Below are positions 1,714 through 58,010 of a DNA stretch of 64,000 nucleotides, in pieces. Source of the DNA: Vicinamibacteria bacterium. Its GTDB lineage: Bacteria > Acidobacteriota > Vicinamibacteria > Marinacidobacterales > Marinacidobacteraceae. Position 1 is the first letter of the stretch. Each line of letters starts with the position of its first letter. The stretch is from assembly GCA_963668695.2 (NCBI GenBank), contig CAXXLQ010000004.1, positions 1,728,001 through 1,792,000 of the forward strand, given 5' to 3'. Under the pieces are notes generated by a model. It had not been told where the DNA came from and did not search any database. It was given only the letters and a program-made list of their open reading frames with translations. Both the position numbers and the translations under genes were made by a program.

Positions 1714-1928
1714 CAGCCTGTGGCAAAACCCACCCGGCCCAGTTCTCCCGGTGGGGGCTCGACGGGCGATCCATCCCGGCTGAACCGCCCCGCTTCGCGG
1801 TGCTCTGCGTTGCGCTTCGGTCGAAATACACTCGGGCCAGTTCTCCCGGTGGGGGCTCCTCCCTTGCGCGCCTTGTCAGCCCGGCGCCTCGCCCGTCTCG
1901 GCGCTCACGTGGGTTTCACCACAGGCTG
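1714..1928. mobile_element. MITE-A copy 1 (contains two 18-nt inserts)
   Basis: Ends CAGCCTGTGG...CCACAGGCTG, TTAA on both sides (1710-1713, 1929-1932). Internally homologous to the copies at 50853, 52554, 54389 and 36883. Confidence 0.85.
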
Positions 1929-2261
1929 TTAAGCGCGGTTCGGAGCGTCTTCTACCGTCGCTGCATCCGAGCGTTCTACCAGTTCGATCCGGAGATCCTT
2001 GCCGAGGGCCGCGGCTGCGCGGCTCATGGAAAGAAGGGTTGCCGATCGGTTGTCGGGATTGAGGAGCCGGTCGAGCGCCGCGCGGCTGGTTCTCATCCGG
2101 GACGCCATTTCGGAGTTCGTAATGCCCTGTTGCTCGATGGCCTGTCGCATCTGAAACGCGAGGACTCGTTTGACGGCGGCGGCCCGCGTCTCAGCGAGGG
2201 CGCCATCCTCTTCAAGCAGTTCATCGAGGGAAGAGCCGATGTGTGGATTCGGGAGGGACAC
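1929..2261 (-). CDS. XRE/HTH antitoxin-like protein (HigA-like), orphan
   Basis: NPHIGSSLDELLEEDG N-terminus and HTH (SEMASRMRTSRAALDRLL). No upstream toxin ORF. Confidence 0.75.
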   Translation of the reverse strand: MSLPNPHIGSSLDELLEEDGALAETRAAAVKRVLAFQMRQAIEQQGITNSEMASRMRTSRAALDRLLNPDNRSATLLSMSRAAAALGKDLRIELVERSDAATVEDAPNRA

Positions 2262-2270
2262 TGACGAAGA

Positions 2271-2292
2271 GATGTATCATAAATGATACATC
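2271..2292. promoter_or_regulatory. Operator-like palindrome GATGTATCAT-aa-ATGATACATC
   Basis: Perfect 10-bp inverted repeat starting 10 nt upstream of the HTH gene start. Confidence 0.65.
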
Positions 2293-2341
2293 CCGCGAGG
2301 ATGGACATCTCTTGGGCCGGCGCACTCGGCCTCGCTGTAGT

Positions 2342-2368
2342 CAGTAGTAAAGGATTCCTTTACTACTG
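2342..2368. promoter_or_regulatory. AT-rich palindrome CAGTAGTAAAGGA-t-TCCTTTACTACTG
   Basis: Perfect 13-bp inverted repeat. Confidence 0.5.
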
Positions 2369-2421
2369 CCGCGGACGGGAAAAGGCATCTGACGCGCTTC
2401 TCCAAGCTCCGTCCATAGCGA

Positions 2422-54680: not shown

Positions 54681-55223
54681 TCAGCGAATCCGGTCCACGT
54701 CGCGTTCGATGCGGGCGAGCACCTCGGGCGAAACCCCGACGGTGGCGGCAGCGGGCGCCGGAGCGTTCTGCCGCCAGCGGCGCAGCACGGTGACCGCGAA
54801 CACCCCGCCCCCGAGCAGGAAGACCCCCGGGAGGATCCAGACCGAGAGGTGGAAGCCGGTGGCCGGCGGCGCCGCGAGGATGACCAGGCCGTAGCGCTCG
54901 GCGAACATGTCGATGAGGTCGTCGGCGTCCTCTCCCGCCTGGAGCCGCTCGGCGATCTCCTCGCGGAGGGGGTTCGAGGAGGGGCAGCGGTCCATGGCGC
55001 ACTCGCTGATCAGCGCGTTGCAGCCGCCGCACTGGCAGGTGAGCGCGTGCGCCACCCGCTGGTAGTCGGCCGAGTTGTAGCGGTCCTGACCGGCCAGCGA
55101 ATGAGCCAAGGGGCCGGCGAGCAGCGCGGTGGCGGCGGCGGCGGCGAGCAGCGTTCGGGCGAGTCGCATCAGATTCATCGGATCAGGCTTCATCGGGTTT
55201 GGCTTCATCGGATCAGGCTTCAT
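54681..55223 (-). CDS. ccmH: CcmH-like cytochrome c maturation protein
   Basis: LTCQCGGC, YG..ILAAPP..GF...W..P. Start uncertain because of 15-bp repeats. Confidence 0.85.
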   Translation of the reverse strand: MKPDPMKPNPMKPDPMNLMRLARTLLAAAAATALLAGPLAHSLAGQDRYNSADYQRVAHALTCQCGGCNALISECAMDRCPSSNPLREEIAERLQAGEDADDLIDMFAERYGLVILAAPPATGFHLSVWILPGVFLLGGGVFAVTVLRRWRQNAPAPAAATVGVSPEVLARIERDVDRIR

Positions 55224-55227
55224 TGGA

Positions 55228-57240
55228 TCAGACGGCCTCCAGGGCGGCCCCCTGCGGGGCGGCGGAGGTGGCGGCTGCCCGGCGGGTGGGCGAGCGGTTC
55301 GGGATCAGGGTGAGCACGGTGCCGAGGAACATCACGAACCCGCCGAGCCACACCCAGCGGACCAGCGGGTTCCGGTACACATGGACGGTAGCCCGCCCGT
55401 CCTCGATCATGCCGGAGAAGACGAGGTAGATGTCCTCCTGGAAGGTGGCGTGGCGGCGCACCTCGGAGGTGGCCTGGCCGGTGGCCTTGTCGAACTGGCG
55501 GCGCGGCTGGAAGATGCCGACCGGCTCGTCGTGCTTCGAGAGCAGGAGCTGCGCCCCGAGCCAGTCATAGACCGGGGTCGAGCCGCTGGGGAGGTCCTGG
55601 AGGGTGACCGACCAGGGACCGATGCGGGTGCTCTCGCCGCGGTTGAGGTCGGCGATGACGTCCTTGTTGAACGCGTTTCCGGCGAAGCCGATGAAGAGCA
55701 GCACGATCCCGATGTGGACGATGTAACCCCCGTAGCGGCGGGTGTTCCGCTGCACGAGGTCCACCAGCGCGGTCGGGTAGCTGCCGCCGCGGTGGGCCCG
55801 CCGGGCGCGGACGCCCCGGTGGAACTCGTATCCGATCGTCACGAAGACGAAGGCCCCCATCGCGAAGCAGAGGATCGCGTAGGGGTGGCGCATGCCGAGG
55901 AGCACCAGCAGCACGCCGGTCCCGATGCCGGCGATGGTGGGCAACGTGAAGTTCCGGCGCAGGCTGTCCATTGAGGAGCGGCGCCAGGCGAGGAGCGGCC
56001 CCACGCCGGTCATCAGCAGGAGCCCGAGGCCGAGCGGGACGTTCACCCGGTTGAAGAAGGGCGCGCCGACGGTGATCTGCTCGCCCTGCACCGCCTCGGA
56101 GAGGACCGGAAACAGCGTGCCCCAGAGCACCGCGAAGCAGGCGGCGAGCAGCAGCAGGTTGTTGAACAGGAAGCCCGCCTCGCGGGAGACCACCGCTTCG
56201 AGTTCGTTCTCGGAGCGGAGATCCTTGACCCGCGTGATCAGCAGCGCTGCGGAGAGGACGGTGGCGGCGATGATGAAGACCAGGAAGCGCCAGGCGAACT
56301 CGGAGGACGCGAAGGCGTGCACCGAGGAGACGATCCCGCTCCGGGTGAGGAAGGTGCCGAAGACGCAGAGCAGGTAGGTCGTCATCACCAATCCGGCGTT
56401 CCAGATCTTTAGCATCCCCTTCCGTTCCTGGATCATCGCGGAGTGCAGGAAGGCGGTGCCGGTGAGCCAGGGCATGAGCGCGGCGTTTTCGACCGGGTCC
56501 CAGCCCCAGTAGCCGCCCCAGCCGAGCTCCACGTAGGCCCAGCGGCCGCCGAGCAGGATGCCGCTGCCGAGGAAGAACCACGCGATGAGCGTCCAGCGCC
56601 GGGTGCTCGCGATCCAGGCGGCGTCGAGCCGCCGGGTCCACAGCGCCGCCACGCAGAACGCGAACGGGATCACGAAGCCCACGTAGCCGGTGTAGAGGAT
56701 CGGCGGGTGGATCGCCATGATCGGGTGCTGGAGCAGCGGGTTCAGCCCGTTCCCGTCGCCGGGGGTGAAGGGGATGGGCCCGGCGGCGGTGATCTCGGCG
56801 AGCTGCCCGAACGGGTTGCACACCCAGTAGTTCATGTAGGCGAAGAACAGGATCACCCCGGCGAGGGTGGTGACCACCTGCGGGATGAGCTCGTCGTCCT
56901 TCCGGCGGATCACGCACGCCGCCGCGAAGACCAACATCAGGAAGGTCCAAAAGACCAGCGACCCGTCGTTCCCGGCCCAGAGCGCCGAGACCTTGTAGTA
57001 CCAGGGGAGCGCCGCCGCCGAGTAGCTCGCGACGTACTGGAAGCGGAAGTCGTCCGCGAGGAAGAGCGCGAGGAGCGCGGCGATCGAGAGCGCCGAGAAG
57101 CCGAAAGCGGCGACGATGGCCCGCCGGGCGCTCGTGACGAGCTGGGCGGAGCGCTTCTTCGCCCCGATCAGCGAGGCGGCGATGGCGTAGACGCACATCA
57201 CGACCACGCCCATCAGCGCGAAGTTGCCGAGGTGATGCAC
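55228..57240 (-). CDS. ccmF: Cytochrome c heme lyase CcmF
   Basis: GLNPLLQ, IHPP, WAY.ELGWGGYWGWDPVEN, TRSGIVSSVHAF. Confidence 0.95.
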   Translation of the reverse strand: MHHLGNFALMGVVVMCVYAIAASLIGAKKRSAQLVTSARRAIVAAFGFSALSIAALLALFLADDFRFQYVASYSAAALPWYYKVSALWAGNDGSLVFWTFLMLVFAAACVIRRKDDELIPQVVTTLAGVILFFAYMNYWVCNPFGQLAEITAAGPIPFTPGDGNGLNPLLQHPIMAIHPPILYTGYVGFVIPFAFCVAALWTRRLDAAWIASTRRWTLIAWFFLGSGILLGGRWAYVELGWGGYWGWDPVENAALMPWLTGTAFLHSAMIQERKGMLKIWNAGLVMTTYLLCVFGTFLTRSGIVSSVHAFASSEFAWRFLVFIIAATVLSAALLITRVKDLRSENELEAVVSREAGFLFNNLLLLAACFAVLWGTLFPVLSEAVQGEQITVGAPFFNRVNVPLGLGLLLMTGVGPLLAWRRSSMDSLRRNFTLPTIAGIGTGVLLVLLGMRHPYAILCFAMGAFVFVTIGYEFHRGVRARRAHRGGSYPTALVDLVQRNTRRYGGYIVHIGIVLLFIGFAGNAFNKDVIADLNRGESTRIGPWSVTLQDLPSGSTPVYDWLGAQLLLSKHDEPVGIFQPRRQFDKATGQATSEVRRHATFQEDIYLVFSGMIEDGRATVHVYRNPLVRWVWLGGFVMFLGTVLTLIPNRSPTRRAAATSAAPQGAALEAV

Positions 57241-57289
57241 TTGTTATCCCTGGCGCCGGCTCCGCCTCTAGCGGCTCACCGGGTGCGGG

Positions 57290-57748
57290 CTAGAGGCCGT
57301 CGGTCGCCTGCCGTCCCGCGGGGGTGGCGGGAGCGGGTTCGGTCTTTGTTTCTTCGTAGGCGGAGTCGTACTTGGAGGCGCACTTCGCCTGCACGTGGTT
57401 CGCCTCGAAGGAGCCGTCCGCGAGGAGGTGTCCCTCCGCGACGGCCTGCGCCCGGTCCACCAGGGTGTCCGGAAGCGGCTCCCGGCCGGTGTAGAGCACC
57501 GCGAGGGTTGCGCCCTCGTGCTCGATCTCGAACCGGACCCGGCCTTCGCCCTCGGAAGTGATCGTCCCGGGGACTACGTCGCCGGCTACCCGGACCCGCC
57601 GGCCTTCAGCCCGCGGCCCCATCGCCTGTAGTTCGCCGACGGTCTGGTAGTAGGCCTTCCCCTCTTCGAACCCGGTGATCAGGAGCCCGGTCAGCGCGGC
57701 CAGGAACAGTCCCCCACCCACGAAAAACTTGGCCTGCCGAACTGCCAT
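57290..57748 (-). CDS. ccmE: Heme chaperone CcmE, CxxxY type
   Basis: RVRVAG.V, LPDT, AKCASKY. Confidence 0.9.
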   Translation of the reverse strand: MAVRQAKFFVGGGLFLAALTGLLITGFEEGKAYYQTVGELQAMGPRAEGRRVRVAGDVVPGTITSEGEGRVRFEIEHEGATLAVLYTGREPLPDTLVDRAQAVAEGHLLADGSFEANHVQAKCASKYDSAYEETKTEPAPATPAGRQATDGL

Positions 57749-57799
57749 AACGAGAGGATGTTACCACCGGGACTGCCGGTCCACCGGATGGCCCCGCGG

Positions 57800-58010
57800 G
57801 CAGGGAACGCCGGTCCACTGAGGCGGCGCCGCAGGCTGGGAACGCCCGCCTTCAGACCGGCACCGCGGCCCGCAGGGCACGGCGGTGAATCGGAGCGCCG
57901 GTCTTCAGGCCCCCACCGGGAGAACTGGCCAGCATCGCGGCCAAAGACCGCGAAACTCCCATCGTCGCTCCCCGCATGGCACGGAGGTGAATCGGAACGG
58001 CCGGTCTGAA
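57800..58010. repeat. REP-like cluster with 18-nt insert (57911-57928), ending at the IS1634 end
   Basis: Repeated GGAACGCC/GGAGCGCCGGTCTTCAG units. Confidence 0.75.

Follow-up and report, generated by a model that had tools for sequence, protein, structure and literature searches.

Modular composite repeats, namely BOX, the neisserial intergenic mosaic elements (NIME) and the bacterial interspersed mosaic elements (BIME), are the nearest described counterparts of the element reported here, an 18-nt unit (CCCCACCGGGAGAACTGG) that recurs in a 64,000-nt stretch of a Vicinamibacteria genome (contig CAXXLQ010000004.1, positions 1,728,001 to 1,792,000; hereafter the window, whose own coordinates are used unless a contig is named). 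In the portions of PMC3049150 drawn on here, BOX (boxA-boxB(n)-boxC) of Streptococcus pneumoniae is a composite resembling a miniature transposable element of the inverted-repeat kind (MITE), with terminal inverted repeats and target duplications, and its internal module is absent or multi-copy, varies between strains and folds as a stem-loop (PMC3049150). The unit's main host, a repeat family termed MITE-A, shares with BOX as there described an optional, variable-copy internal module (0 to 6 units) within a MITE-like frame. The boxB module measures 45 nt and stands in one tandem array at one position, whereas the 18-nt unit occupies at least six positions in both orientations, mostly singly; unlike the BOX module it is also found in a second, unrelated hairpin repeat family, termed REP-B after its likeness to repetitive extragenic palindromic (REP) sequences, and its filled and empty sites differ by small replacements.

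Neisserial mosaics, in the part of their description considered here, contain 20-bp dRS3 sequences that flank repeat sequence (RS) elements in hundreds of copies, with recombination between copies invoked, and an IS110-like recombinase targets the dRS3 repeats (PMC1797815). On that description the present system shares with dRS3 an element of ~20 bp, hundreds of copies and dynamic intergenic mosaics, and here too an IS110 element is found in a REP-B hairpin; dRS3, however, which bounds modules, is an inverted repeat whose centre varies, whereas the present unit is non-palindromic and invariant and lies inside whole MITEs and REPs. The BIMEs and REPs of enterobacteria and pseudomonads, and the REPINs (REP doublets forming hairpins) that accompany REP-associated tyrosine transposases (RAYTs), appear in the corresponding extracts as GC-rich extragenic hairpins in hundreds of copies (PMC2817692, PMC3333891, PMC3116915). 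Shared with these, within the limits of those extracts, are the GC-rich hairpins, their assembly into composites with short conserved motifs, and their use as insertion sequence (IS) targets. BIMEs carry short conserved linker motifs outside the palindromic units. Unlike BIMEs and REPINs as so described, the present repeats are accompanied by no Y1/RAYT gene that we could find, and the cassette is optional and lies within loops, not between palindromic units. Template switching at quasipalindromes, according to the passages of PMC7202029 used here, produces a substitution and an insertion at a hairpin in one step from a nearby template (PMC7202029). Replacement-type junctions are common to that process and to the unit. 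Quasipalindrome switching, as that source presents it, is templated in cis from the other arm, whereas 47 of 127 centre-filled MITEs have no left-arm unit and 285 of the 636 islands of units hold a single one.

What is new with respect to modular repeats is the presence of many independent, optional, single-copy slots in two unrelated hosts, the uncoupling of slot states from the repeat backbone, and the replacement-type alleles. The reading we favour, at about an even chance, is that paralogous repeats exchange the unit as a modular cassette, through templated copying over very short tracts; as the current driver a dedicated writer of oligonucleotides is not supported, though one may have founded new slots. 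Searches of the literature on Vicinamibacteria repeats and modular MITE gene conversion yielded no description of the unit.

Abundance of the unit and its confinement to repeats

The window belongs to a 4.10-Mb assembly of four contigs (genome G000), 91.7% complete and with 9.3% nominal "contamination". This genome holds 1,631 copies of the unit, 1,288 of them exact, 278 with one mismatch and 65 with two; the non-redundant count, with duplicated parts of the assembly allowed for, is 1,528. The copies fall in equal numbers on the two strands, are spread along the chromosome at ~1 per 2.5 kb, and are grouped in the 636 islands mentioned above, of 1 to 15 units each. Tandem runs reach at most five units, with 140 runs of two. 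MITE-A loci account for 1,365 of the 1,631 copies and REP-B for most of the other 266. Rare 11-mers on both flanks were found at only 4 of 1,630 units, all four of them in diverged MITEs, so the unit is not found in unique DNA. A first-pass annotation of the window had placed every copy it found in a repeat, and the genome-wide count bears this out: units are confined to repeat families. About 12 pairings of a left with a right flank, here called slots, account for ~95% of copies, and a matrix of left against right flanks is close to diagonal. The unit behaves as an indivisible cassette: there are no half-units, and an exact left half precedes 1,201 of the 1,262 right halves. In REP-B the strand bias is weak, with 22 plus and 37 minus units between the skew extremes and 19 and 23 outside them. 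A scan of viral contigs gave one chance match, in unique DNA.

The annotation's statement that the unit is far more conserved than its hosts holds on average, since exact units number 1,288 of 1,631 and the backbone agrees with its consensus to 87% on average, but not for long backbone blocks, which reach 97-100%. The unit does lack stop codons in all six frames, as had been pointed out; this is not unusual, about half of random 18-mers at this G+C content being stop-free by our own estimate.

A density of ~1 per 2.5 kb on equal strands, genome-wide distribution and family-level conservation would also suit a sequence akin to a DNA uptake signal, accumulating by biased uptake and recombination. 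We consider this highly improbable: the unit is never in unique or coding DNA, it comes as a whole cassette and not by point mutation, with no partial or near-miss series, and it is clustered at up to 15 per island. Membership among the DNA uptake sequences (DUS) or uptake signal sequences (USS) was rejected; those have copies throughout unique and coding DNA, arising by point mutation, whereas 4 of 1,630 units lie outside repeated flanks.

The host repeats

MITE-A, an IS5-like family, has a backbone of ~180 nt with inverted ends CAGCCTGTGG... and ...CCACAGGCTG, and is present at 645 loci totalling 138 kb; it is small and non-coding and has terminal inverted repeats, as a MITE should. CTAG or TTAG is duplicated at both ends, and the empty site holds a single CTAG in relative G004 (for the MITE at 52554-52822) and a single TTAG in relative G001 (for that at ~54389-54675). 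Such a 4-bp YTAR duplication we take to be typical of IS5-type elements. The slots are designated s1, s2 (often two tandem units), s3 (centre), s4, s4b and s5, with occupancies from ~10% to 55%, and the units are oriented mostly mirror-symmetrically in the two arms. Genome-wide there are also 110 cases of a 71-nt spacing from unit to unit, which are arrays in which a 71-nt module, made up of the unit and 53 nt of the MITE right end, is repeated in tandem, apparently through recombination between units or partial MITE duplication.

REP-B is a double hairpin, with GCCGGTCTGAAGACCGGC or GCCGACCGGAGGTCGGC as its second stem-loop. After subtraction of ~10 chance matches per length, ~200 of these hairpins are empty (24-25 nt) and ~90 filled (43-44 nt), the empty ones forming perfect 6-bp stems. 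Most slots of both families adjoin CCGG or GCC and are situated within a hairpin loop or at its side. The CCGG bases beside units are hypervariable (CCGG, CCGA, CCTG, CCAG, CTGG) even among identical backbones, both next to slot s3 and in REP-B stems (e.g., at 19465, 42240 and 54062), which could be methylation-linked mutation.

The region orthologous to the window was compared in six relatives, with "intergenic" defined by orthology blocks and a few Pfam matches. The closest relative (94-96% identity) lacks all four intergenic repeat insertions between 46500 and 58000. The host repeats are mobile elements of an ordinary kind and young; because they are absent at 4/4 sites in the closest relative, cross-species orthologs could not polarise gains and losses of the unit. 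Among seven DDE_Tnp_1 loci and one IS110 locus (L095-L102), there was no autonomous IS with MITE-A ends (at most 4 mismatches) and none with unit-bearing ends.

Folded as single-stranded DNA, the unit-rich MITE at 52554-52822 gives a long hairpin with unit-to-unit pairing (-112.9 kcal/mol, z = -12.2); the corresponding value for a unit-poor copy is z = -1.8, and single slots, folded locally, are no more stable than shuffles (z from -0.1 to 0.6). Two backbone sites, one 10 nt to the left of s3 and the other 16 nt to its right, vary together as T:A or C:G (236 + 144 copies vs 39 others), closing a GCGT/ACGC stem around the centre slot (e.g., at ~52650 and ~52700), and this suggests selection on, or correction by, secondary structure. 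Cross-arm pairing, mirror-symmetric orientation, conservation across genera and young mobile hosts (4/4 window insertions absent from the closest relative) would all agree with units being protein-binding or pairing modules under selection at the level of the repeat, such as sub-terminal transposase-binding sites or stem extenders, with the pattern arising from selection and not from a high flip rate. Repeats that gained units by rare accident would then transpose or persist better. Both the module reading and this selective route to it appear quite unlikely, since selection alone gives no discordant slots among identical backbones (below), every combination of slot states, 20 or more in all, is represented, with 32 of 236 copies devoid of units, and the DDE and IS110 genes yielded no IS with unit-bearing or MITE-A ends.

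Structure of filled and empty alleles

The difference in length between filled and empty alleles is quantised, at +18 or +19 depending on the slot, and most filled alleles are not clean insertions, 1-3 target bases being replaced. The alleles are as follows, with ^ marking an uninterrupted junction:

s3: empty GGAGGA-ATA-CCG, filled GGAGGA-GC-unit-C-CCG; 121 empty vs 152 filled, with no intermediates
s5: empty CGAAC^GCCG, filled CGAGC-unit-GCCG; one exception
s1: empty a polymorphic base x (C, T or G), filled unit-GC
s2: empty GGGC^, filled GGAC-unit or GGGC-unit'-unit
REP-B loop: empty GAAG-A-CCGG, filled GAAG-GC-unit-CCGG; mirror image on the other strand

At s3, 119 of the 121 empty alleles carry ATA (two carry GTA), and all 152 filled alleles start with GC; genome-wide the two alleles are represented by 313 and 275 copies with the same junctions, which also occur in three other species. 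The simple form GGGC-unit-GCC was not seen at s2. A constant GC precedes the unit on its 5' side in 8 of ~10 slots. A net gain of usually exactly 18 nt had been claimed from the window; the quantised gain stands in the form given above, and a clean insertion does not describe most slots. Absence of target duplication at the unit sites was correctly noted, the variation being presence or absence at fixed sites in structured repeats.

Empty alleles are not deletion products, because no scar forms were seen among them and ATA, AC and x are not contained in the filled alleles. For the same lack of scar-type empty alleles a constant excision footprint, one candidate put forward earlier, is unlikely. 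The reading that all slots were filled in a larger ancestral element, the empty alleles being deletions, has in its favour that 15-nt microhomology deletions inside units do occur, two of them between duplicate contigs of the assembly. It is nonetheless largely refuted by the allele structures and by the relatives, and we regard it as exceedingly improbable: besides the missing scars, empty REP-B hairpins are perfect 6-bp stems that far outnumber units in several relatives, and another genus (g5, below) fills other slots. Unit excision was also considered for a peak of exact 10+10 junctions and rejected, that 15-nt-deletion peak consisting of many filled copies that match one rare deletion variant.

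Slot states are uncoupled from the MITE backbone

Slot states were typed in 236 MITE copies, and every combination was found (20 or more). Odds ratios between slots are 0.7-1.7, none significant, except for 3.0 between the centre and right slots. The state of s3 has V <= 0.09 with every backbone single-nucleotide polymorphism (SNP) tested, the one exception being V = 0.41 with a base 2 nt from the junction. Backbone SNPs that straddle s3 are, by contrast, strongly linked to each other (-10 vs +16, V = 0.92), and both are linked to the +31 site (V ~0.7, 0.71). The fraction filled at s3 is 44/87, 18/34 and 18/32 in three backbone subfamilies, with similar spreads at s1, s2 and s5. Each of the four pairings of an s3 state with a backbone haplotype is represented across the genome (171, 171, 79 and 65 copies) and in loci of three other species as well.

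Among copies with identical 119-nt backbones, discordance at s1, s2 and s3 is 0.50, 0.50 and 0.47, vs 0.45, 0.45 and 0.50 in random pairs. Slot s4 serves as an internal control: its discordance in identical-backbone pairs is 0.00 and it diverges only with backbone distance, so the test is able to detect inheritance. Alignments of identical-backbone copies from four distant loci show clean cassettes. Slot states are independent of MITE subfamily and, at s1-s3, already randomised among identical backbones. A founder-and-amplify history, with one insertion per slot followed by MITE amplification, fits s4 and is excluded for s1-s3 and s5, because these show no linkage to the backbone.

Duplicate contigs in the assembly (97.6-99.7% identity over 265 kb) carry 101 and 106 units. 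MITEs at the same locus on the two, otherwise identical, differ by one cassette, and at three loci the s2 alleles GGGC^, GGAC+unit and GGGC+unit'+unit swap between the duplicates with identical flanks. The unit is thus polymorphic between near-identical sequences. The slot alleles are old and shared across species, and their state flips often and independently of the backbone. The duplicated parts are contigs C1, C3 and C4:3783325-3913787 (the last 130 kb of C4), with counterparts at C4:304184-421223, C4:3505137-3538141 and C4:13629-148038; most differences between them are 1-nt gaps, and they are probably strain variants or an overlapping end.

Because slot states are read from consensus, and slightly different duplicate contigs and 9.3% "contamination" are present, a technical artefact must be weighed, either contamination by an adapter or primer or the scrambling of slot states by assembly or polishing of a strain mixture. 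This is very improbable. The same unit and slots recur in many independent assemblies of one family, with 0 matches to a reversed-pattern control; seven sequencing runs from two studies hold at least 88% of sampled words of window positions 51500-54000; and in four of these runs summed word depth is 10^4-10^5 in repeat bins vs ~10^2 in unique bins. Linkage between backbone SNPs is intact, and wholesale scrambling is unlikely for that reason. The unit is not known to resemble any sequencing adapter, no adapter list having been searched.

Short templated copying and the candidate enzymes

Variants of the unit are distributed by slot. A13G is frequent at s2-first (79/218), s1 (39/183) and the REP-B loop (13/115) and rare at s3 (2/305), s5 (1/310) and s2-second, the adjacent unit (1/142); 20 of 26 G18C variants are in REP-B, and 12 of 15 copies of a 17-nt variant are in s1. 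Since the variants are slot-specific, the template of each event would be a copy of the same slot. The annotation had envisaged a fixed oligonucleotide written from a master template; against this, junctions are slot-specific and recur in independent recent events, and the variants are slot-specific too.

Searches for an enzyme were largely negative. In the 91.7%-complete genome there were 0 matches to the reverse transcriptase (RT) profile RVT_1 (PF00078) and 0 to Y1_Tnp (PF01797), whose control matched in 6 of 14 genomes; the control for the Y2_Tnp profile matched nowhere in the genomes scanned. The TnpB family gave a sub-threshold match of 21.7 bits and none above the cut-off. A single IS110 gene was found, with a different target (the REP-B hairpin after GGAGGTC) and an end without the unit. 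RT-templated addition of the retron, DRT (defence-associated RT) or telomerase kind, suggested earlier, therefore finds neither a PF00078 match nor any tandem run of more than five units, and the suggestion that the unit is cargo of an HUH- or IS110-type recombinase fails on the missing Y1_Tnp and the other target of the one IS110. Assignment to the REP/REPIN-with-RAYT class was likewise rejected for want of a Y1 (HUH) transposase gene (0 matches to PF01797).

With junctions and variants slot-specific and no candidate enzyme, the template of a flip would most simply be another copy of the same slot. Under short templated copying, the flip would proceed by non-allelic gene conversion, or by template switching during replication, repair or transposition of the repeat, and the same copying would keep backbones homogeneous (concerted evolution). 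The tract would be either a very short patch bounded by invariant blocks beside the slot, or conversion would be very frequent among near-identical copies. New slots would be founded only rarely, when "GC-unit" is copied illegitimately, guided by microhomology, into a further CCGG or GCC site. Identity of the unit across genera may be kept by constant copying or by usefulness to the repeats, as units in opposite arms are predicted to pair into a very stable MITE hairpin that may bind protein.

Several points weigh against templated copying. The chief technical caveat is that slot states are an assembled consensus, the contigs from sequencing runs being short and breaking at repeats. Between the duplicate contigs there are ~7 changes among ~100 units, a rate seemingly insufficient for the randomisation of young copies, unless old backbones are also held identical by conversion. 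The tracts would have to take in the cassette and 1-3 flanking bases yet stop short of the SNPs lying 10 nt to its left and 21 nt to its right, and such tracts are shorter than those of RecA-type conversion; conversion with random endpoints should have broken backbone linkage first. Part of the -10/+16 linkage may be held by selection, which weakens the argument from linkage either way.

The founding of ~12 slots would be accounted for if the unit were a true miniature mobile cassette, an 18-20-nt piece ("GC"+unit) inserted and perhaps removed at hairpin loops by CCGG or GCC by an enzyme acting in trans, which might be integrase-, nuclease/ligase- or polymerase-like. An indivisible unit, fixed boundaries with 5' GC constant in 8 of ~10 slots, and targets that share CCGG/GCC and hairpin loops, the palindromic REP-B loop being filled on either strand in mirror fashion, all fit this; so do slot states uncoupled from SNPs 4-10 nt away and saturated among identical backbones, a unit identical across four genera despite diverging backbones, and slots that differ between genera. 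One template, however, would give uniform products, whereas slot-specific junctions and variants recur independently; the unit is never outside repeat families, s4 behaves as a plain inherited marker, there are no arrays of more than five units, and the genome yielded no RT, no Y1 transposase, no TnpB above the cut-off and one IS110 with another target. We judge the mobile cassette possible but unlikely. Also doubtful is a form in which the smallest known autonomous-looking mobile unit is pasted as a fixed oligonucleotide by an activity recognising hairpin loops, with same-slot copying only spreading units once founded. Equally doubtful is that such an activity, encoded by host or element, has left as its footprints the ~12 slots, the genus-specific slots and the perfect conservation of the unit.

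The usual view of small bacterial repeats is of sequences that move and decay whole. In these uncultured marine (sponge-metagenome) acidobacteria there is a finer layer, an 18-nt cassette switched at fixed positions hundreds of times, faster than point mutation and at each position independently. If templated by paralogs, it would be an unusually clean natural record of conversion over very short tracts, or of template switching, at hairpins, and of the way a 600-member family evolves in concert; if enzymatic, it would be a new kind of DNA-writing activity. Either way, perfect 18-bp homologies and long hairpins stand at ~640 places in a 4-Mb genome, where they should affect recombination, replication and transcript ends, and the unit repeats explain the fragmented short-read assemblies of these genomes.

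Distribution among related genomes

One genome per species was scanned, followed by 60 relatives; the reversed-pattern control gave 0 or 1 match. The unit is present in many assemblies labelled Vicinamibacteria, 'Candidatus Marinacidobacterium' or 'Acidobacteria bacterium', and elsewhere as single chance matches. All 15 genomes of the window's own genus have it, at 8 to 776 copies (1,566 in G000), with the highest counts in assemblies of few contigs. Other genera, labelled g2 to g7, have it in 3/3 genomes (g4, with hundreds of copies), 1/1 (g5), 1/1 (g2) and, as a single copy, 1/4 (g6); it is absent from g3 (0/2), g7 (0/1) and the 33 genomes of other families (0/33).

The empty REP-B hairpin is present in 15/15 genomes of the genus, one of which has 530 hairpins and 15 units. 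Because empty hairpins abound in relatives with few units, the empty forms look ancestral. Genus g5 has the same MITE family with a diverged backbone, its units mainly in s4b and often with s1; s2 and s3 (centre) are empty in the g5 copies read. From genus to genus the unit is better conserved than its hosts, and different slots are in use.

Copies in the window

The window holds 17 matches to the unit with at most two mismatches, on both strands, starting at the positions given below; the expected number is 0.01 (100 shuffles, 0 of which reached 17). With the 17-nt variants, which lack one T, at 50890 and 52591 and a fragment of 10-12 nt adjoining the copy at 36907, this accounts for the 19 copies and one partial copy of the earlier count. 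Each window copy read lies inside a MITE-A copy or a REP-B hairpin, again as had been claimed. An Rfam scan of the window gave no match.

about 1714-1925, minus strand: MITE-A copy with units at 1739-1756 (s5) and 1837-1854 (centre slot s3)
4722-4739, plus strand: unit, G18C variant, in REP-B hairpin slot b; context GTGCCGGG-unit-CCAGAGGTCGGCG
19470-19487, minus strand: unit in REP-B hairpin loop; context GATGCTGG-unit-GCCTGAAGACCGGCG
33593-33610, plus strand: unit with 2 mismatches in REP-B hairpin slot b
36907-36936, minus strand: unit and adjacent 10-12 nt partial unit, in a truncated MITE-A end (36880-36970)
~37125-37155: empty REP-B hairpin near the truncated MITE-A end at 36907
42245-42262, minus strand: unit in REP-B hairpin loop
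47716-47930, no strand assigned: two REP-B elements, with units at 47772-47789 (minus, after GGTCGGC) and 47910-47927 (plus, loop slot)
50853-51067, plus strand: MITE-A copy with a 17-nt variant at 50890-50906 (s1) and a 2-mismatch unit at 50991-51008 (s4); s2, s3 and s5 empty; the copy itself absent in six relatives
52554-52822, plus strand: MITE-A copy of 269 nt with CTAG duplicated at 52550-53 and 52823-26; units at 52591-52607 (17-nt, s1), 52615-52632 (s2, GGAC form), 52664-52681 (s3), 52746-52763 (s4b) and 52780-52797 (s5)
54067-54084, minus strand: unit with 1 mismatch in REP-B hairpin loop
54389-54675 (approximate ends), plus strand: MITE-A copy with TTAG duplication and a unit at 54463-54480 (s3); absent in G001
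57911-57928, plus strand: unit in REP-B hairpin loop; opposite-strand form TCTTCAGGC-unit-CCAGCATC
58003-60216, minus strand: 2.2-kb insertion sequence with a DDE_Tnp_1 transposase open reading frame at 58096-60018, within a REP-B hairpin

Three pairings of empty and filled sites proposed from the window could be verified: GCGAGGC^GCCCGG at 50907 against the filled site at 52615, GGTCGGC^GTTCCC at 37141 against that at 47772, and the slot filled at 50991. The MITE at 52554-52822, at 269 nt against a backbone consensus of ~180 nt, agrees with the base length first proposed.

The block 47716-47930 is absent at the orthologous site of G001. This site, at one gene end, carries two REP-B elements in the window genome, a single, different one in G004 and none in G001; the motif GGCG(C/T)TCCC, which the empty site has a single time, borders every inserted element, a hint at the way REP-B inserts.

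Both the 2.2-kb DDE insertion sequence and the single IS110 are inside REP-B hairpins. The insertion sequence at 58003-60216 is not the source of the unit and shows that REP-B hairpins are insertion targets. Its two copies (58003-60216 and G000:C4:3128216-3130428) both lie in a REP-B hairpin loop and are flanked by inverted, not direct, hairpin halves. Within its REP-B hairpin the IS110 element L095 (G000:C4:480899-484372) follows GGAGGTC, and a further two such hairpins of C4, in 81- and 82-nt forms, carry a 57-nt insert like the IS110 left end alone; these inserts may be miniature IS110 derivatives.

Other repeat arrays

A CRISPR array of at least 45 repeats lies at 6876-9600 of locus L162 (G000:C4:3274000-3293900), near a weak Cas1 match at C4:3284095-3284739; its repeat, GGTCCATCCCCGCGCGTGCGGGGGAAGC, recurs every 61 nt and bears no relation to the unit, which speaks against CRISPR-related integration. 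At 2750-4100 of the same locus lies another array, 1.3 kb long, in which the motif CAGCGTGGAGTTCC is repeated with a 53-nt period. Elsewhere on this contig, G000:C4:2803874-2826790 is a 23-kb tandem array with a period of ~351 nt and 85-95% identity between its units, possibly a giant repetitive gene.

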